Below, in pieces: positions 21,896-34,268 of a DNA stretch of 64,000 bases. Below the pieces are notes generated by a model. It was given only the letters and a program-made list of their open reading frames with translations. It was not told the origin of the DNA and did not search any database. Numbering within the stretch: position 1 is the first letter of the stretch; each line of letters starts with the position of its first letter. The DNA lies in NCBI GenBank assembly GCA_030390025.1, contig CM059432.1:10974001-11038000 (forward strand), read 5' to 3'. The position numbers were made by a program, and so were the translations under genes. Source of the stretch: Squalus acanthias. Lineage: Eukaryota.

Positions 21896-22290
21896 TCAAT
21901 TTGTAGATGTTAACCACTCTCGGGAACTCATCCAACTCCCTTTTGAATGCTTGTAGTGAATCCACACTGCACGTGCTGGCAACCTATTCCAGTGATCAAT
22001 GACTCTTTGTGAAAAGAAGTACTTCCTAGCATTTAATTTTGTTCTTTGTTTTTGTAACTTATACTTGTGTGCCCTTAACCTATCCAGTTTGAATAGCCTA
22101 TCCTCTTGGACTGAATCTAATCCATTCATTATTTTAAAAGCCTCAATTAAATCGCCTCAAAGTCCATGCTTTTCTAAAGTAAAGCATCCCAGCTCTTTCA
22201 ACCTATCCTGATAACTGAGGGCCCATAAACTAGGTAACAATCTAGTGGCCCTTCTTTGATTGATTTGCAGGGCTTCTATAGCCCCCAGCA
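21896..22290 (-). mobile_element. Old CR1 3' fragment
   Basis: FFSQRVIDHWNRLP. Confidence 0.7.
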
Positions 22291-22911
22291 TGTGAGGGAA
22301 TCAAAATGGCCCTCCAAGGTTCCATTTCGTGGCTAGGCGAACAATGCAAGGATTACTCTTCAGTTGTAGTTCTTTGTGTAAAGCAGCCATGCTAACCTTC
22401 TAGTACCACATGTAAACTGTCAGTTGGTGTGAGGGTAACACATCTAAACAAACAGGGTGCAATATTCCAGCTATTGTTCCTCATTTGCATTATATACCAA
22501 CTTGAAGCACGTTACCCAGCTTGAGAAGGATTCACGGTACCAGCTGCATTCTACATGTTTCTGGTGGGAAATTCAGCGAACATCGAATATCAGATTATTG
22601 TAAGGTGCCTGTAAAATTACATTTCTCATTTTGTATAAACTTAATTCATACCCATTTGAAATTGTTATTTATTGTCATCTTAAATTCTGTTTTAAAAATG
22701 TTATATAATTCACCATTCACTCAGCTAATTAGATTAGGCAATTTGATATTGCCGTGGTGGATTCTTCTATTGCTGGGTATTCTTGGTTTCGAACAAAAGC
22801 ATAATTCTGTTCACAACATGTGTGCTTGTTCCTGTTGGTTCATTTTTTTCTCTCTCTCTCATTTTTCATAATGTTACATTATGAGACATTAAGGACTTTG
22901 TTTTTATGCAG

Positions 22912-23045
22912 ACGACCTGGAGAACACGCAGCAAGAAACTCCGACAGAATTTTCTACTACACTACTGATTGATAAGCAGACTGAAAATGACACATTTCAA
23001 ACCAACAAGGAACTAAATTCAAACATTCACATGAATGAAAGTGGG
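22912..23045 (+). CDS. CEP192: CEP192 exon (phase 1-0), DLENTQQETP...NESG
   Basis: atgcag acceptor, gttagt donor, open frame, phases fit. Confidence 0.78.
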
Positions 23046-23249
23046 GTTAGTGCCATTTTGTTATTTGATTCTTGCATATTTAAACATTACATTTAGATAT
23101 GCTCTGCTTTAAATGCCGTGAAAAAGTTATATTTGACACTAACTTGCTGAATAAAATGTGTAGCATGCAGAGAACATCATTTGTATATTTGGTTTAAATT
23201 GTACTTCAGATAATAAATGAATGTGGCTAAAAGCTGTTCTCTTTTTTAG

Positions 23250-24471
23250 AATACGGAACTTTTGAGTTCGCATCTGAAAGCTAAACAACCTATATTATTG
23301 AATGGCACAGATTCAGTCTTGAGTATAAGTACAATTGCTTCTGCTATAGCTGATGCCTCTGTGAGTGCCGATCCTGCTCAGCTAGCTGCTATGATTTTGG
23401 AGCTTTCTAATAAAAACAGGAAGAAATATGAACCTGCATCAACTAGCAGAAAACCAAGTGTGCAACTGAAGGACCAGAAAAGCAATGTGATCAACGATAT
23501 AGGTGCTTCTGTGGAGAAAAATCTTGAAAAATCTGAAACCAGTGAAAGTGAAGTTCTGAAATCTGAATTTAAGTCACTGTCAGAATCTATTTCTGCTTAC
23601 AGTTTAGATTCTGTTAAGTCATCTGAAAGTTCCAGGAATCCTCGCAGCACATCAAATTCATTTTCAGGGGAAACTACCTTGACTAGTGCCAGCAAGCAGG
23701 ACAAGAAGAAAATATTACTTTCAAAAGAATGGCAATTTAATGCTATTGAAACAGGAAATGTCGCTCAGTCAGATGAAACTTGTCAGTCAGTCAAATTGGT
23801 TGAGGGCAAGATCAGAGCACATAGTCAGAATGGCCACTCAAGTGAAACTTGTGTACTTGAGACGAACACATATCCTGGTCCCAAACAGGGTGGCAGTAAG
23901 TTTACCGACGTGAAGTTAATGGTAAAAGAAGGATCTTTTGATGACCGAGTTATTTCAAGTGGAGGTAAAGTCAATGAAATGCCAAACATGAATGCTACTA
24001 CCACAGCAGTGGAGAAACAAGGCAAATCTTTTTTAACTGGGCCTTCTGCACAGAAAGTTTGTCTGGTGGAGAATGAATCCAGCTCAGATAAAACCCGATG
24101 TAAAACAAAGACTGAAAGCCGAAAAGAAATGACACAAAAAGCCATTGAGAAAACCTCATCTGATGACCGAATGTTCAGGGCAGAACAGAAAAAGTTTAAG
24201 GTGACTGTTGTTTCTTCACAACCCTCTGCTGTTCAAGGTATGGCAACAAGTTTGCATTGTCCAAAAATACATATTGCTGGACCTGTGGAGCAAAGGTTTA
24301 GGGAATCAATAAGTGAGACAATATACGAAGATGACCGAGAAATGCATGTAACTTCAAAACCACAATTAGGAAGAGATGAGCGAGAAAGCTCAGATCTCCA
24401 TAGCCAGCAAAAGAGAGTCAGCTTTGAACAATCTAATCGTGCCCCTGCTACACCAAAAAACAATGAAACTG
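23250..24471 (+). CDS. CEP192: CEP192 large exon (phase 0-1), 1222 nt, LSISTIASAIADASVSADPAQLAAMI then Ser/Lys/Glu-rich region
   Basis: ttttag acceptor, G|gtaagc donor, ORF 23262..24512. Confidence 0.93.
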
Positions 24472-24580
24472 GTAAGCAATTGTTAAATAATAAGGTACCC
24501 AATGCTTTATAATGATACTGACCACTATAATTAATGGTCATGATGCGGAGATGCCGGTGTTGGACTGGGGTGGACAAAAA

Positions 24581-24866
24581 TGAGAAGTCGCACAACACCA
24601 GGTTATAGTCCAACAGTTTTATTTGAAATCACAAGCTTTCGGAGCTTACACCCCTTCCTCAGGTGAAGTAAAGAAATACAGAATCGACAAAGCATATATA
24701 GATAGAGAACAATGCATGTGTAACTTACAATGGCAGACGACTACATTTAAATCATCCTGACTGTTTATCTGCCGAGGTGTGACAAAAGGCAATCAGGTCA
24801 GCCAGGAAGGTACCACATTAAAGACATAGCAAGATACAACTGAGACAATGAGGTGGAGTCACAGGG
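24581..24866 (-). repeat. Pseudo-LTR, left arm of 286-bp inverted repeat
   Basis: Reverse complement of 27489-27774, about three substitutions by eye. Confidence 0.95.
24629..24666 (-). ncRNA. Minimal type I hammerhead ribozyme motif (element sense)
   Basis: Reverse complement reads UCAC-CUGAGGA-A-GGGGU-GUAA-GCUCC-GAAA-GCUU-GUGA. Confidence 0.8.
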
Positions 24867-27488
24867 GGTCCAATGTGTCAAAAGCCGCAGTCGGTATGGG
24901 AAACGATAAACTTTAAAATTTTTACTTTTTTACTGGGAATCACATCTGTGAACAAGCCAACGACGACTCGAGTTTGGATCACGTCATGTATCGTGACATA
25001 AACCCAAGATCCCGGTTGAGGCCGTCCTCATGAGTGCGGAACTTGGCTATCAGTTTCTGCTCGATGATTTTGCGTTGTCGTGTGTTTCTAAGGCCGCCTT
25101 GGAGAACGCTTACCCGCAGATCCGAGGCTGAATGTCCTTGACTGCTGAAGTGTTCCCCGACTGGGAGGGAACACTCCTGCCTGGTGATTGTTGCGCGGTG
25201 TCCGTTCATATGTTGTCTCAGTGTCTGCATGGTCTCGCCGATGTACCATGCCGCGGTGCATTCTTTCCTGCAACGTATGAGGTAGACAACGTTGGCCGAG
25301 TCACATGAGTATGTACCATGTACCTGGTGGGTAGTGTCCTCACGTGTGATGATGGTATCTGTGTTGATGATCTGGCATGTCTTGCAGAGGTTGCCGTGGC
25401 AGGGTTGTGTGGTGTCGTGGTCGCTGTTATCCTGAAAGCTGGGTAATTTGCTGCGAACGATGGTACTTCTGAGGTTAGGCGGCTGTTTAAAGGCAAGTAG
25501 TGGAGGCGTGGGGATGGCCTTAGCGAGGTGTTCGTCGTCATCGATGACATGTTGGAGGCTGCGAAGAACATGGCGTAGTTTCTCCGCTCCGGGGAAGTAC
25601 TGGACGACGTAGGGTACCCTGTTGGTTGTGTCCCGTGTTTGCCTTCTGAGGAGGTCTATGCGATTTTTCGCTGTGGCCCGTCGGAACTGTCGATCGATGA
25701 GTCGAGCGTCATATCCCGTTCTTACGAGGGCGTTTTTCAGCGTCCATAGGTGTCCATCGCGTTCCTCCTCGTCTGAGCAGATCCTGTGTATTCGCAGGGC
25801 TTGTCCATAGGGGATGGCTTCTTTAACGTGGTTAGGGTGGAAGCTGGAGAAGTGGAGCATCGTGAGGTTGTCCGTGGGCTTGCGGTAGAGTGAAGTGCTG
25901 AGGTGTCCGTCTTTGATGGAGATTCGTGTGTCCAGGAATGAAACCGATTCTGAGGAGTAGTCCATGGTGAGTTTGATGGTGGGATGGAACTTGTTTATGT
26001 TATCGTGTAGTCTTTTCAGTGATCCTTCGCCATGGGTCCAAAGGAAGAAGATGTCGTCAATGTATCTGGTGTACAGCGTTGGCTGGAGGTCCTGTGCAGC
26101 GAAGAAGTCTTGCTCGAACTTGTGCATGAAGATGTTGGCGTATTGGGGTGCGAATTTGGTCCCCATGGCTGTTCCGTGTGTTTGGGTAAAAAAATGGTTG
26201 TCGAAGGTGAAGACATTGTGGTCAAGGATGAAGCGGATGAGTTGTAGGATGGCGTCTGGAGATTGGCTGTTGTTGGTGTTGAGTACTGAGGCTGTCGCAG
26301 CGATGCCGTCATCGTGGGGGATACTGGTGTAGAGTGCCGATACGTCCATCGTGGCGAGGAGTGTTCCTGGTTCAACTGGTCCGTGGGTGCTGAGTTTCTG
26401 TAAGAAGTCTGTGGTGTCACGGCAGAAGCTGGGGGTTCCCTGTACGATGGGTTTCAGGATGCCCTCGACGTATCCAGAGAGGTTCTCACACAGGGTTCCG
26501 TTGCCTGATACGATAGGACGTCCGGGTGTGTTGGCTTTGTGTATCTTTGGGAGGCAGTAGAAGTCTCCCACGCAGGGAGTACGTGGGATGAGAGCACGTA
26601 GGATGCTTTGAAGGTCTGGATCGAAGGTCTTGATCAGTCTATTGAGTTGGCGGGTGTGTTCTTTGGTCGGATCTGCGGGTAACTGTCTGTAGTGTTCCAG
26701 GTTGTCCAGTGGTATGCTTCTTTGCAATAGTCCATTCTGTTCTGTATGACGATGGCTCCTCCTTTGTCCGCTGGTTTGATGACGATGTTGCGGTTGGTCT
26801 TGAGAGCGTGGATGGCGTTGCGTTGTGCTCGGGTGACATTCTGGACTGTCTTGTGAGTGCGGCTGATGAATCTGGCGTTGATGCATCTCCTGACAGCTTG
26901 AGCATACATGTCAAGCTTGGGGCAGCGACCCTCCGGAGGGGTCCAATTTGACTTTTTTTCTTCGGTTGCTGCACTGCGAGTCCCTCTGTCTGCTGATCTG
27001 GATCATTGATTGTCTCATTGGGTTTGTTGCTGACATCTTGGGATTTGTGGAAGTATTCCCGGAGCCTCATTCTCCTGATGAATTCCTCCGTGTCTGCCGC
27101 GAGACCGATGGGGTCCATTTTGGTGGTGGGGCAGAACTTGAGCCCTAGGGCGAGAACTTCGATTTCGTCTGGTTGAAGGGTGTGGTCGGACAAGTTGACG
27201 ATGGACTTCCCTGTGGTTGCAACCGTGGTACCGGGGGAGGCTTGGTTGCTGCTGGTGGTGATGCCGAGTTTCTCAAGCTTCCTGTTCTTGATGCGCATGT
27301 AGGCAGCGTAGTTCCGTTGCCTCGTCTGTTTGGCGGTGTCTCGTAACTGGTCTGCTGTGTCCTGAGCACAGGCTGAGAGCATGGACTCTATCTTGGTTTC
27401 GAGGTTGCGGCGTTTGCTGTAGAGCTGGTGTACGAGATGGTTGAGGAGTGTGCGAGAGGTACGACGGCAGAGTCTCTCAGCGTAGTGA

Positions 27489-27774
27489 CCCTGTGACTCC
27501 ACCTCATTGTCTCAGTTGTATCTTGCTATGTCTTTGATGTGGTACCTTCCTGGCTGACCTGATTGCCTTTTGTCACACCTCGGCAGATAAACAGTCAGGA
27601 TGATTTAAATGTAGTCGTCTGCCATTGTAAGTTACACATGCATTGTTCTCTATCTATATATGCTTTGTCGATTCTGTATTTCTTTACTTCACCTGAGGAA
27701 GGGGTGTAAGCTCCGAAAGCTTGTGATTTCAAATAAAACTGTTGGACTATAACCTGGTGTTGTGCGACTTCTCA
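27489..27774 (+). repeat. Pseudo-LTR, right (inverted) arm
   Basis: Reverse complement of 24581-24866. Confidence 0.95.
27689..27726 (+). ncRNA. Minimal type I hammerhead ribozyme motif (sense to CEP192)
   Basis: tcac CTGAGGA a ggggt gtaa gctcc GAAA gctt gtga. Confidence 0.8.
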
Positions 27775-27959
27775 CTATAATTGAAGAATACATGTCCATT
27801 TTTCTAAGGCTACCTTTTTAGAACTACCCAACACAGTGAAGTCACTTAATGGAATCATTTGGTGAATGTATTAATTTTCAACAGATCAAGTGTGATGATG
27901 CATAACATATGTAGATAATTTTAGTAATTAAGCAATTTACTCACCATGCATGTAATTTA

Positions 27960-28300
27960 GAAACATAGAAAAATAGGAGCAGGAGTAGGCCATTCGGCCC
28001 TTCAAGCCTACTCCGCCATTCAATATGATCATAGCTGATCCTCTATCTCAATACCATATTCCTGCTCTCTCCCCATACCCCTTGATGCCTTTTGTGTCTA
28101 GAAATCTATCTATCTCCTTCTTAAATATATTCAGTGACTTGGCCTCCACAGCTTGCTGTGGTAGAGAATTCCACAGGTTCACCACCCTCTGAGTGAAGAA
28201 AATTCTCCTCATCTCAGCCCTAAATGTCCTACCCTGTGTCCTGAGACTGTGACCCCTCATTCTAGACCCCCCCAGCCAGGGGAAACATCCTCCTGCATCA
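27960..28300 (-). mobile_element. CR1 3' fragment
   Basis: RGHSLR...FFTQRVVNLWNSLP; similar to 61976-62370. Confidence 0.88.
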
Positions 28301-28696
28301 ATTTTTATGCCAAAAATTACACACAGGCCTTTAAAGTAATTTATTTTACCTTTACGTTTGGTGTAACCTATTGATGATCAGACTTAAAATGCATAGGATA
28401 GCTATATAAAACATTTTAGGGTAGAAAATAGCTACTTTGGGAATTCTGGAAAGAAATCATAATGAGCAGCTTCTATAGTAAAATATTTGTTGCTGCTAAA
28501 TTCATTAGATGAAGTGACGCATGAATTCTAAACTCAGTGAGTACACTCATCTTTTGCAACTCTGGTGTTGTGCATTGGTGCTCTCTTGCACTTTACCACA
28601 GCACTGTTTAATACTGAAGTTGAAAAATTATCTTAATGTAGCAAATATGTGCATAATTTTTAACTGATGAAATACATAGTCTTCTTTCATTATAAG

Positions 28697-28796
28697 ATCA
28701 CGATTCTGCACCAGATCAGCTAAATTTGAGGCCATCAACATCTCCATTGACTCATTCTTCACCAAGCCAAGTAACAGAACTACAAATTACCACAAG
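28697..28796 (+). CDS. CEP192: CEP192 exon (phase 1-2), QLNLRPSTSPLTHSSPSQ
   Basis: tataag acceptor, AG|gtaaaa donor, conserved RPSTSPLxHSSP. Confidence 0.88.
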
Positions 28797-29429
28797 GTAA
28801 AAAAGAATCTCTGTTGTATGTCCCTGCTCAATTTTATGAAAATGGTTTTGGTGAATTCACTGCATGTTGTAGTTAAACAAGGTCGGATGCTTGAAACATT
28901 TCAAATCAATCAACCTTCTTATTCAGTAGAATATTATCATTCATTTGCTCGGAAAAAATACCCAGGAACACTTTCCTAAAGTCTCTTGTTCAAGCACAAT
29001 TTCATTCTGTTGTATTCGCCAGAGGTTTTTTGCTGTACCCAGCTATAAGTGAAAATTCTGGGAGGGCCAGCTATGAATTGGCGCCACAGCTCCCCTTATC
29101 AATGAAACCACCCTGGGATGCTTATTGTCCTGTCAGTGCTGTCATGAATGGCCTAGTATGGGGGAGAGATATTGGCCTGTACATTTAATGCCTGTAATGA
29201 CTAAGTATGGAGATGAATGTTTGATATTTTCTTTAAAATATTTATGAATTTTATTTAATTATAATCTGTGTTTTAATGAAAAATGGGGAAGTTCTTTGAA
29301 TAAGAAATACCTCTTCTCCCCCCCCCCCCCCCCCCCCCCCCCCAAACTTTTTGTTTCCTTAACAATATTTCTGTAGAATATCTCTGGTTGATTTGCAAAG
29401 AGCCACTTCAAAATAGGAAGACCTCGTCT

Positions 29430-29810
29430 CTGATGGCTCAGTTGATTAAATTCAACACTCTGCATAAAGCTGAGCCATACACAACAGGAAGGTTCCATAT
29501 TCCATTTTGGTTTAGATGATCTAGACTAGGGTGCCAGTTGGGGCCTGGTTTCTCTGGACTTGGGAGAGGGAAAAGTCCGCTTGTTTGCTATCCAGTAGCC
29601 CATGCTGGGACATGCAGGACTGTGGGCATCGGATGAGGACGGGATCTGGCTCAGCTGTGATCCTTTCCGCCTCCTTCCCCAACAGTTGAATAGCTTGCCA
29701 GTTTGCAACACGTTAGTTCACACATGAATAATAGATACGTGGGCAAGGTACTGAAGCTTAGCCAGCTTCTGTGGAAACGCAAGCTTCAGGAGAGGAGGGG
29801 AGAAATTGGA
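29430..29810 (+). mobile_element. Degraded tRNA-derived SINE-like repeat (related pieces near 16780-17120 and 30035-30380)
   Basis: tggctcagttg A-box-like head, shared agccataca motif; family not assigned. Confidence 0.45.
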
Positions 29811-30483
29811 CAAGGTAACAGAAAAATAGCTTTTTTAATGTTATAGTTCTACCTGGCTCTTCGGGTTGTGTGGACTGCCATGGACCACCATATTTTTTGC
29901 ATCATCAAACTGAGCAGAAAGGTGTGCCATAATCTTAAAAATTATCATTTTTACTTGAAGGTTGTACTATCTGAAAGACTATGTAAACAACAGAATCCCT
30001 ATAAACATATTCTGTAATTAAAGATTAGAATCCTGTGATAGTGTTGTGGATCAAGGCATTGCCTGGTGTAGAATCAAGCCATACAGAGCAGAGCCACAGG
30101 TCATTTTTGATCTTTGTTGAGTTAGCTGAGCTCAGATGGACCAGTAGTCGGAGTGCTACAATTGACCTGCTGGAAAGTGTGCACTTTGTCCAAGGATGAG
30201 GATCAGATTCGGGCCAGTTAAAATGCCCTTGAAGGGTGAGTACCCTGCTGACATTCGCTGTCGAGGTTCTCATGAAGAACATCCACTCGGTTGAGTACTG
30301 AAGTAGTACCAGTGTCCAAGGAACCATAGAGCTTGGGACCTTCAGGAGAGGAGTGCAAACATTGGAGAAGGGGAGGGGAACAAAATGACCAGATTCCTGC
30401 ATTGATGGTTTGTTACCTTAATATGTCTGTGTTAATTGCAGGGCTGATTTTCTATTCCTGAAAATAAATCTTCCCTTTTTCAG

Positions 30484-30598
30484 CAGTTCATCCTCTTTGA
30501 CACACTCCAGCCCAAACCTTAGCAGACTGAGCTATATCTCTGGTATTGAGGCAATACTACAGAACAGCACAGCCATTGGCAGTCCAGTGGATCCTAAG
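30484..30598 (+). CDS. CEP192: CEP192 exon (phase 2-0), HSSPNLSRLSYISG...DPK
   Basis: CAGCAG acceptor, AAG|gtagga donor, SPxLSRLxY motif. Confidence 0.87.
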
Positions 30599-30649
30599 GT
30601 AGGAGAAAGCTCTGGAATCTTTTACTTAACAAACTGTTTTCTGAACTGA

Positions 30650-31185
30650 AACAACAACTTTACATTTATGTAGTGCCTTAAACGTCCCAAGGCACTTCAC
30701 AGGAGCATTATCAAACAAAATTTGACACCAAGCCGCATAAGGAGATATTAGGGCAGGTGACCAAAAGCGGAGAGTTTTAGTGAGGGAATTCCAGAGATTA
30801 GGACCCAGGCAGCTGAAGACACGGCTGCCAATAGTGAAATGATGAAAATCGGGGATGCGCAAGAGGGCCAGAATTGGAGGTGTGCATAGATCTTGGAGGG
30901 TTGTGGGGTGGAGGAGGTTACAGAGATAGGGAGGGGTGAGGCTATGGAAGGTTTTGAAAACAAGGATGAGAATTTTCAAATCAAGGTGTTGCCGGACTAG
31001 GTCAGCGAACACAGGGTGATGGGTGAATGGGGTTTGGTGCGAGTTAGGACACGGGCAGCAGAGGTTTGGATGAGCTCAAGTTTATGGAGGGTGTAAGGTG
31101 GCAGATCGGCCAGTCGAGTCAAGAGGTTAGAAAGGCATGAATGAGGGTTTCAGCAGCAGATGAGCTGAGGCAGGGGCGGAGACGA
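30650..31185 (-). mobile_element. L2-type LINE 3' fragment
   Basis: caacaact tail; GPNLWNSL remnant. Confidence 0.8.
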
Positions 31186-32065
31186 TATCTTAAAGTTGAA
31201 AGTAAGTAGTTGCACTAAGTAGTAATCTCTCAATGTTAGGATATTACACTAATGACTTCTGGAAGGCATTTCAAAAGCAAAAGATTCACAAATCACAATT
31301 TATGACTGCTACACAAGGAAAACTTTCAATTATCACCTTGTTCGAAGAAACAAATGTAGGAAGCGGGTAGCAAAAAAGGTGCTAATTGCTGTTGAAGTAA
31401 AAACAGAAAAAGGTAAAAATATACAGCAGGCCAAATGGCATCTGAAAAGAAAAAACAGATTAACATTTCAATCTTTTAAACTTCTGAGCTCTGATGCAGG
31501 GTTTCTACGTTTCTTTTTCTTTACAGATGCTGATGTACATATTTCCAGCATTTTCTGTTTTATTTTCAGCATTTGCATTGGCTCTATTTTGTATGTGTGT
31601 GCATGTACAAAAATATTTTAACATTGCTTCTAGCTTTCATACAAGTCAGATCATAGGTACAGCTGGGTATGGCTCAAAATGGCTTGTAGTTTGTGTAATC
31701 CACAGTGGATGATTTCCAGGTTGTTTGAATTCAGGGCTCTTGCCAAATCACCTGTAAACAATTAAAAAATCAGCTGGTGAGTCAGAGCCCATTTCAGTGG
31801 GAAAACCTGAATTCCAACTGATTAACGGGTTAATTTGTTTTATTGAGACTACCAAGAAATCCTCAAGCCTAGGTTTCGATAAGGTTTTGCCCACCAAGTT
31901 GGGTGGCACAGTAAATAGCGTAGATGGGAGCAGAAAATTGCAATGGGACATTGATAGATTAAGTGAGTGGACAAAACTGTGGCAGATGGACTTCAATGTG
32001 GGGAAAGTGTGAGGTCATCCACTTTCGACCTAAGGACAGAAATCACTAACTGCTAGTGGCAAGTA

Positions 32066-32618
32066 CAGGTTGAGCGTCCAAAATCCGGAGTTCCGGACTC
32101 CGGGACGATTGGTGGCAGGGTCGTCTGGAATCCGTAAAATGTTCCGTAATCCGGAACTCCGGATTTTGGACGCTCAACCTGTACTTCAAAAAGCCATGAA
32201 CTTTTGTCTTTTTTTGAAAAATCCTATGAAAAATGCGATTGATGCAATAAAACTTTAGTGTTGTGTTTTATTCTCCTTAATCTGCACAGCTCCACTAAGT
32301 GTTTCCACCAGGCTGCGGCCACGGCACCACGCCGCCCTGGTGGCCTAGTGTGGGCCATCGGATGCTCTGCAGAGCTCGCAGCGTCCCTCCCCTTTAACAG
32401 AAGGGGAGGGGTGGAGAAACGCGTCAGCGCTACGCGGAGCGGCCCAGGCATTTCCGGACTAGGAACGTGTTTTTGATGTCCGAAGTCCGAAAACGCCCGA
32501 GCCCAGGTTGCGATATTTCCGGACTTCGGACATCAGAAACACGTTCCGAAGTCCGAAAAAACACGAAAACTGGCTCGACCTCGGTCCCGAGGTTGCCGGA
32601 TTCAGGACGCTCAACCTG
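32066..32618. mobile_element. Tc1/pogo-type composite MITE with one left and two right TIRs
   Basis: TA|CAGGTTGAGCGTCC at 32066; GGACGCTCAACCTG|TA ending at 32181 and 32618; interrupts a CR1 remnant. Confidence 0.85.
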
Positions 32619-32679
32619 TACAAAAATTAATTAAAAAGACTAATAGAATGTTGGCATTTATCTCAAGGAGGCTGGAATG

Positions 32680-33733
32680 CAACAACAACTTGTATTTACA
32701 TAGCGCCTCTAACATAGTAAAACGTCCCAAGGCACTTCACAGGAGTATTGTAAGACAAAAAATTTGACACCGAGCCACAGAAGGAGAAATTAGGGCAGAT
32801 GACCAAAAGCTTGGTCAAAGAGGTAGGTTTTAAGGAGCGTCTGAAAGGAGGAAAGAGAGGCGGAGTGGTTTAGGCAGGGAATTCCAGAGCTTCGGGCCGA
32901 GCCAACAGAAGGCACGGCCACCAATTAGAGAAGCGCAGATATCTCGGGGCGGGGAAGGGTTGTGGGCTGGAGGAGATTACAGAGATAGGGAGGGGGCGAG
33001 GCCATGGAGGGATTTGAAAACAAAGATGAGAATTTTGAAATCGAGGCGTTGCTTAACCGGGAGCCATTGTAGGTCAGCGAGCACAAGGGTGATGGGTGAA
33101 TGGGACTTGGTGCGAGTTAGGACACGGGTTTTGGATGACCTCAAGTTTACATAGGGTAGAACGTGGGAGGCCAGCCAGGAGTGCGTTGGAATAGTCCAGT
33201 CTAGAGGTAATAAAGGCATGGGTGAGGGTTTCAGCAGCGGATGAGCTGAGGCAAGGGCGGAGACGGGCGATGTTGCGGAGGTGGAAATAGGTGATCTTAG
33301 TTATGCCACGGATATGTTGTCGGAAGCTTATTTCGGGGTTAGATATGACCCCAAGGTTGTAAACAGTGTAGTTCAGCCTCAGACAGAGAGAGGGATGGAG
33401 CCAGTGGCTGGGAACAGAGTTTGTGGCGTGGACCAAAAACAATGGCTTTGGTCTTCCCAATATTTAATTGGAGAAAATTTCTGCTCATCCAGAACTGGAT
33501 GTCGGAGAAGCAGTCTGACAATTTAGAGACCGTGGAGGGGTCGAGAAATTGGTGGTGAGGCAGAGCTGGGTGTCGTCAGCATACATGTGGAAACTGATGC
33601 TGTTTTTTCGGATGATGTCGCCATGGGGCAGTACGTAGATGAGAAATAGGGGGCCAAGGATAAATCCTTGGGGGACATCAGAGGTAATTATGCGGGGGCA
33701 CAAAGAGAATCCATTGCAGGTGATTCTCTGGGG
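32680..33733 (-). mobile_element. L2-type LINE 3' part, nested in a CR1 remnant
   Basis: HMYADDTQL, HAFITSRLDYSNALL, LQWLPVKQR. Confidence 0.9.
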
Positions 33734-34268
33734 TGAATCAAAGGGTGAAAGTTATGTTACAGTTGTATAAAGCTCTGGTTAGGCCCCATTTAGAGTACTG
33801 CGTTCAGTTCTGGGCACTGCACCTCAGGAAGGATATATTGGCCTTGGAGGGGGTGCAGTGCAGATTCACCTTAATGATACCAAGGCTAAAAGGGTTAAAT
33901 TATGAGGACTGGTTGCATAGTCTAGGCTTGTATTCCTTTGAGTACTTGAGTATAGAAGATTAAGGTTGAGGTGTTTAAGATGATTAAAGGAATTGATAGG
34001 GTAGATAGAGAAGCTATTTCCTCTGATGGGAGTCCAAAATGAGGCAGCATAACCTTCCACCCCCCCCCCCCCCCAAACAAAAGCTGTTGAGGCTGGGGGG
34101 TCAGTTGAAAATTTCAAAACTGAGATTGATAGATTTTTGTTAGTCAAGTGTATTAAGGGTTACGGAACCAAGACTGGTAGATGGAGTTAAGATACAGACC
34201 AGCCATGATCTAATTGAATGGCCGAACAGGCTCGAGGGGCTGAATGGCCTCCTCCTGTATCCTATGTT
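33734..34268 (+). mobile_element. CR1 3' fragment (continues the remnant at 31890-32680)
   Basis: LVRPHLEYCVQFW and 3' tail. Confidence 0.82.

Follow-up and report, generated by a model that had tools for sequence, protein, structure and literature searches.

The CEP192 intron and its insertion

The window, 64,000 nucleotides of Squalus acanthias DNA, carries CEP192 on its plus strand. A frame at 23250-24512(+) matches CEP192 proteins (best match whale shark, 53% identity, E 3.6e-100), colinear plus-strand exons flank the inserted element and continue through the window, and Cep192_D4 lies just downstream on the same strand; the CEP192 exon itself was unrecognised by Pfam. The intron considered here spans 24473-28696 (4,224 nt, GT..AG, phase-consistent). 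An insertion that begins 60 nt past the splice donor accounts for 3,240 nt of it, having enlarged the intron from about 1.0 to 4.2 kb. This insertion is a broken, young Neptune-like Penelope-like element (PLE), comprising a body, a pseudo-LTR (pLTR) region that forms the left arm, and an inverted right arm. The closest protein relatives of gene and element alike are from sharks. The features are as follows.

23295..24472 (+): large CEP192 exon, start approximate; protein match; the insertion lies 60 nt from its donor
24523..24532 (+): target-site duplication, left copy, 10 nt
24533..24580 (-): PLE tail, at this end only; the full-length copy L121 has it extend as far as the start codon of the ORF
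24581..24866 (-): left arm, which is the 3' pLTR region proper to the element and the complement of the right arm
24629..24666 (-): twin of the hammerhead motif, reading sense with respect to the element and antisense with respect to CEP192
24979..27486 (-): broken PLE ORF with reverse transcriptase (RT), CX4CXXC linker and GIY-YIG-type endonuclease
27489..27774 (+): inverted right arm, 286 nt of the element 3' end, stopping at the short end, the one that has no tail
27655..27661 (+): TATA-like box, 31-25 nt upstream of the inferred element start; its promoter role is putative
27684..27690 (+): initiator-like site; A at 27686, at which arm 5' ends accumulate, is the inferred element RNA start
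27689..27726 (+): minimal type I hammerhead motif (stem I, CUGAGGA, extra A, stem II, GAAA, AGCU, U17)
27732..27737 (+): AATAAA with GU-rich sequence downstream, the only one on the plus strand of the intron
27773..27782 (+): target-site duplication, right copy, its first 2 nt common with the arm end
28697..28796 (+): next CEP192 exon; protein match, and the only unique part covered by RNA-like runs

The element lies antisense to the gene, as the preliminary description of this DNA had it: its ORF is on the minus strand, where Pfam finds an RT domain (RVT_1, E 8.7e-9). On the window copy Pfam gave no GIY-YIG match and left the N-terminal piece of the ORF unrecognised; the endonuclease motifs were found by pattern (DKG, VVY..YIGET, H..EHF), and PF01541 is matched in some homologues. 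About 56 codons are missing from the N-terminal part of the window ORF, whose reading frame is shifted near 26950. A natural tandem copy of the same subfamily, L121 (G000:C7:9544100-9553100), shows the order pLTR-ORF-pLTR with an unbroken 893-aa frame, a 3' pLTR that is cut short, and a tail that terminates at the start codon. A single ORF with RT followed by a GIY-YIG-type endonuclease, a pLTR, an optional tail, an inverted 5'-truncated copy and a target-site duplication together give the layout of an endonuclease-bearing (EN+) PLE. The CX4CXXC linker, at aa 754 of L121 and also present in the window ORF, is of the Neptune type and is common to Nematis; CX2-5CXXC linkers are assigned to Neptune and Nematis in the available text of PMC8557442. 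Judged by its linker sequence, the element is of Neptune/Nematis type and hence not Penelope/Poseidon in the strict sense. The proposed origin in a Penelope pseudo-LTR is thus right as to a PLE and an inverted pLTR, and is to be amended as to clade. Named reference PLE proteins were absent among the protein matches of the element ORF.

A single one of 286 positions distinguishes the inverted arms (24581-24866 and 27489-27774; 285/286 identical), and among the 41 genome matches listed 10 were identical to the right arm, one being the arm itself. The insertion is therefore young. The arms bear one motif per strand, so that it is indeed the inverted pLTR arm that places a motif on the host strand. 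The same arm supplies the only plus-strand AATAAA of the intron. The single arm mismatch (27536) was considered as a mark of two templates and rejected, the left-arm letter being private (1 of 82 arms); a poly(A) site at the short end was considered as well and set aside, since that end lies about 40 nt from AATAAA and past the GU-rich tract. Elsewhere in the window, 27958-28300 is a high-copy LINE-like 3' fragment in the same intron, with very high depth in the sequencing-run comparison described below, and short inverted repeats with 46-bp and 43-bp arms cluster at 32061-32621, possibly a miniature DNA transposon.

A minimal hammerhead motif

The motif at 27689-27726(+) follows the layout of the minimal type I hammerheads known from PLEs, and every component named in the preliminary description (CUGAGGA and GAAA cores, stem II with a GNRA loop, 4-bp stem I, AGCU palindrome) is present as claimed. 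Read from the sequence, stem I is UCAC/GUGA (4 bp), the CUGAGGA core occupies 27693-27699 and is followed by one extra A, and stem II is GGGGU/GCUCC (5 pairs, 2 of them G-U) closed by the loop GUAA. GAAA, the palindrome AGCU and U17 follow 3' of stem II, and the cut site is predicted at 27722|27723. In the terms used for minimal hammerhead ribozymes (min-HHRs), there is a conserved CUGANGA and GAAA core with U16.1/H17, an extra nucleotide between 9 and 10.1, a G10.1-C11.1 pair and a palindromic 15.2-16.2, and the site is a PLE pLTR, as the L121 copy makes plain. The pattern CTGANGA-N5-25-GAAAGCT has two matches in the window, one per strand (27693 + and 24634 -), against a shuffle mean of 0.10 and at least 2 matches in 0 of 100 shuffles.

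The motif is not a canonical type I hammerhead: it is without helix III, and an Rfam search gave no hammerhead family at E<=5 in 22000-34000, only six weak unrelated matches. This outcome is expected, because helix III is absent.

Conservation among copies

Conservation was examined in 100 arms picked solely on downstream sequence (first 5.3 Mb of C1), of which 84 have a full motif. Both cores are kept in 75 of the 84; U4 is changed to C in 7 and other changes occur in 2. At residue 17, 70 motifs have U, as does the window copy, and 14 have C. The seven motifs with C for U4 of the catalytic core include the subfamilies of L159, L208, L215, L219, L230 and L231, which are apparently still copied.

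The covariation alignment comprised 30 of 40 distinct variants and the three CEP192 copies (33 sequences). Its paired cells amount to 97.3%, as compared with 95.6 +/- 0.4 in shuffles and 17-51% in slid controls, a figure favoured by the omission of six variants with an altered or cut 5' strand of stem I along with four near-duplicates. Changes on both sides were seen at 2 pairs, a number reached by 63 of 500 shuffles. In stem I a C-G to U-A change occurs in 6 of 33 variants, and G10.1-C11.1 is G-C in 32 of 33 and G-U in the other. These alignments lend modest support to the keeping of helices I and II by covariation, related sequences being apt to inflate such scores. Conservation of core and stems among genomic copies, whose absence would have told against the preliminary description, is thus borne out. 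Because the structure is maintained across subfamilies and the core is intact in 75 of 84, it was concluded that the motif does something for the element.

Copy number and genomic setting

The stem-I-plus-core pattern has 44,187 matches in the genome, and its backwards-pattern control has 0. The exact 38-mer has 199 matches, and the 37 nt directly 3' of it have 44,436. The first 100 exact copies listed include 23 inverted pairs (46 copies) and one tandem of 2; they represent 76 insertions, 42 of which have an inverted partner arm of at least 30 nt. Insertions with two inverted arms are thus common in this family. Any two-armed insertion in any intron yields one sense motif with its complement upstream. 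The notion of a special placement, one that could cut the intron of an essential gene, finds no support here.

The 164 kb around CEP192 hold three sense and three antisense motifs, so that the gene carries two further sense copies in addition to the one at 27689. The window has a single plus-strand motif, with no same-strand partner within 30 kb or in this intron; the next sense copy lies 30.8 kb upstream, several exons away. Insertions of PLEs of other subfamilies with minimal hammerheads also occur in the CEP192 span (L240, L239 and L232, at G000:C8:10962164(+), 10968912(-)/10970860(+) and 11041613(-), respectively), two of them with a sense motif. Among eight other loci (L154, L156, L160, L168, L182, L205, L214, L228) several insertions have nearly the same target flanks within other repeats, which suggests a preference for certain sites in LINE-like elements that are abundant.

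Putative start of the element RNA and possible traces of cutting

Arm 5' ends pile up at 27686-27687 (18 of 76 anchor arms, which were chosen so as to contain the whole motif, and 8 of 42 partner arms). In the set chosen on downstream sequence, sorted by regular expression, arms start near stem I in 30 of 100 and at the cut site in 0 of 100; one of the 15 rows in the class "inside" (L181) turns out to be a full motif with mutations. Of the 53 arms with a TATATA, 51 have it 37-41 nt before C3, a spacing kept across subfamilies, and 27684-27690 is initiator-like. The pile-up and the TATATA spacing point to transcription start at 27686 and to templates that are mostly uncut. Element RNA would thus begin 3 nt before stem I, from a putative TATA/initiator promoter, with the hammerhead at its 5' end; cutting there would be weak, and would probably take place only as a dimer or with element protein. 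U17 makes for a weaker cut site.

Genome-wide counts of arm boundaries, made with two-base mismatch patterns, give 190 starts at the cut site versus 72 (-4 nt), 176 (+2) and 44 (+4). When normalised these become 525 versus 138, 313 and 122, a 2-4-fold excess over neighbours, and cut-site starts make up about 1% of arms. Among 30 cut-site junctions that were read, 2 are not 5' ends and about 10 are explicable by microhomology to the partner-arm stem I. A weak residual excess may remain, and hints at occasional cutting of element RNA, not host RNA.

Fate of the motif in the CEP192 pre-mRNA

The orientation of the motif is not in question: gene (23250-24512 frame, flanking exons, Cep192_D4) and motif are both on the plus strand, and the motif is sense to CEP192 as originally described. 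The preliminary description went on to suggest that it might cut the host intron unless masked by the left arm. By simple geometry, a head-to-head insertion has the complement transcribed ahead of the sense motif in either direction of the host gene. In the CEP192 pre-mRNA the polymerase would make the complementary arm about 3 kb earlier, and a 286-bp arm duplex would then take up the motif; no dimer partner would be near, and the intron would be spliced out.

Folding predictions, all of them equilibrium values that ignore kinetics and RNA-binding proteins, agree with this scheme. Both stems form in the isolated 38-mer (P about 0.7), and the pairing probability of stem I is at most 0.07 in contexts of 135 nt or more. 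The arm-arm duplex is predicted at -559 kcal/mol versus -62.5 for the right arm alone, and in the minimum-energy fold of 24560-27800 every arm base (286 of 286) is paired, and every motif base (38 of 38) is paired with the left arm. Masking by the left arm is thus likely. An AGCU:AGCU duplex is worth merely -2.5 kcal/mol, and the minimum-energy fold of the homodimer is a structure other than a hammerhead dimer. The dimer requirement given for such motifs in the preliminary description accords with the available text on Schistosoma (PMC4209133), where a min-HHR monomer did not cleave, dimers and trimers cleaved little, and opposite-strand pairs are described. Because the motif is without a tandem partner and its complementary copy is transcribed first, it is likely to remain uncut in the pre-mRNA, and the idea of host-intron cleavage is unsupported.

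Four sequencing runs, some of which are RNA by guess, were compared with 24867-29300 as contigs only, and other element copies dominate their signal. Within these limits exon bins were covered by the RNA-like runs and unique intron was uncovered, and neither the splice joint nor the unique insertion junction was among the matches listed. The family sequence of the element does occur in RNA-like contigs, which carry neither strand nor level.

Taken jointly, these data are best explained by a standard PLE-pLTR minimal hammerhead that was put sense in CEP192 by the usual head-to-head insertion, and that is likely silent there and likely useless to the host (probability about 0.85). Counting against silence, the right arm carries the putative promoter, RNA from which (27686) would be without the masking arm, and an element protein could act on the motif in trans. 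The contrary proposal, that part of the nascent CEP192 transcripts is cut at the motif while the arm duplex has yet to form, with help from element protein or from a trans partner supplied by the abundant element RNAs, and that CEP192 output is thereby lowered, draws on the intact core and stems, the folding of the isolated 38-mer, the family sequence in RNA-like contigs and the modest excess of arm starts at the cut site, as well as on the protein-assisted cleavage reported for an Anolis PLE in the available text of PMC11167929. We nevertheless consider it improbable. Transcription reaches the complementary arm first, and full pairing with it is predicted, a cis partner is wanting and AGCU:AGCU pairing is feeble, two further sense copies persist in CEP192, and the cut-site excess shrinks once microhomology and junctions that are not 5' ends are taken into account. 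Splicing need not be blocked by a cut intron.

Somewhat less unlikely, if still doubtful, is an effect of the insertion on CEP192 that does not involve cleavage, through outward pLTR promoters (one in sense at 27686, one in antisense at about 24669 that would read over the large exon), the AATAAA on the sense strand at 27732, or the 286-bp duplex 60-110 nt from the donor. The promoter-like spacing kept across subfamilies, the 5' ends at 27686, the sole plus-strand AATAAA and the roughly fourfold growth of the intron all speak for such an effect, as do the TATA plus initiator described for the rotifer pLTR in what is available of PMC3846280; the same features are, however, common to tens of thousands of copies, and the AATAAA too would be inside the duplex. 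Finally, the motif is intronic, sense and in an essential gene, and domesticated intronic hammerheads exist (PMC6155905, available portion). Host domestication of the kind seen in amniote RECK or CTCL is nonetheless extremely improbable for a copy that is very young, is identical to 198 others, is without helix III and still sits inside its own insertion with a target-site duplication. A regulatory role of the motif in CEP192 is unsupported.

For CEP192, then, the motif probably does not matter. The geometry by which a sense motif always follows its own complement would explain how tens of thousands of ribozyme-like motifs are tolerated in introns. If the motif did cut, the PLE load would be a genome-wide drain on pre-mRNA, and solo intronic copies ought to show a bias in orientation.

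Two-armed insertions and integration

A total of 78 inverted pairs was assembled, 7 of which were dropped as being without detectable duplication. In 70 of the 71 kept, which have a target-site duplication, one end is tailed and the other tail-less (binomial p 3e-20 at 0.5). The one pair that departs from this, L207, has a duplication call of 7 nt that is doubtful, and another reading of it gives tailed plus tail-less. Duplications are 12-13 nt long in 49 of 71, microhomology counted in. That the tail is often at one end only was already known (PMC8557442 and PMC3846280, in their available text).

Both motifs are readable in 54 pairs: 37 are identical, 12 have one difference and 5 have two or more. 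Three of the 54 (L074, L085, L217) join arms of different subfamilies within one duplication, the haplotypes differing at 3-7 places and recurring elsewhere; the two arms of L085 match further copies of their respective subfamilies at 100% identity, with no duplication between the arms. L185 and L211 were not counted as clear chimeras, their arms differing by one inserted base in the motif, and L126 and L218 were set aside since their differences are private. The mixed-subfamily arms suggest that each of the two target strands was primed, on two RNAs; such arms may alternatively stem from gene conversion or nested insertion.

In the available text of PMC3846280, head-to-head repeats are attributed to self-priming on an antisense template, by which both arms would come from one molecule. 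In the reading favoured above, reverse transcription would start at either of two sites about 40 nt apart, giving tailed and tail-less ends, and both target strands would be primed. A further scheme, to which we would give even odds, has a dimeric RT-endonuclease cutting with a stagger of about 12 bp and priming always at the tail site on one target strand and at the short site on the other; the cDNAs, possibly from different RNAs, would be joined head to head. If true, it would supersede antisense self-priming as a model. The end statistics are relevant to how PLEs integrate, a mechanism as yet unsolved, and make two-RNA priming testable. No two-template or twin-priming model for PLEs was found in the literature searched, which was thin on subscription papers, and a search on sharks and Neptune gave nothing relevant.

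Relationship to known systems

Non-LTR retrozymes and domesticated intronic hammerheads (PMC7229834, PMC6155905 and bioRxiv 10.64898/2026.07.22.740005, in the portions available) share with the present motif a type I hammerhead in animal repetitive DNA, in some cases intronic. They differ in that this locus has no tandem array (150-450-bp hammerhead repeats are absent here) and no helix III, and orthologous-site conservation is not in evidence. Retrozymes are modestly depleted from Xenopus introns (bioRxiv 10.64898/2026.07.22.740005), which, as far as the available text goes, favours selection against active intronic hammerheads.

The PLE min-HHRs are far closer, with the same CUGANGA and GAAA core, extra nucleotide between 9 and 10.1, G10.1-C11.1 pair, palindromic 15.2-16.2, 4-bp helix I, lack of helix III and pLTR site, and with thousands of dispersed copies and opposite-strand pairs. 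The 44,187 pattern matches here compare with about 4,000 in coelacanth and about 9,000 in Xenopus, numbers obtained by different search methods, and helix II has 5 pairs as against 7-8 in the Schistosoma families. With the Neptune/Nematis EN+ PLE unit, as given in the available text of Craig et al. 2021 (PMC8557442) and Arkhipova et al. 2013 (PMC3846280), the element shares an RT with C-terminal GIY-YIG-type endonuclease, the CX2-5CXXC linker, the pLTR with TATA plus initiator, an adjacent inverted 5'-truncated copy, a 30-40-bp tail that is often one-ended, and the target-site duplication. It differs in that the one-sided tail is near-invariant here and that some arm pairs derive from two subfamilies.

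The Anolis Poseidon element PAc (Frangieh et al. 2024, PMC11167929, available text) likewise starts reverse transcription at two sites flanking the tail and cuts and extends each target strand; it too has a hammerhead near the ORF start and uses uncut RNA as its main template. Its hammerhead cleaved solely in the presence of protein, insertion persisted in core mutants, and RNA-seq reads ending at the site are reported there to be absent. PAc belongs to another clade, and its ORF begins inside the hammerhead, whereas here the ATG is at the tail end, about 125 nt downstream of stem I. For PAc the same text describes no in vitro strand difference in start site, whereas here the two ends almost always differ.
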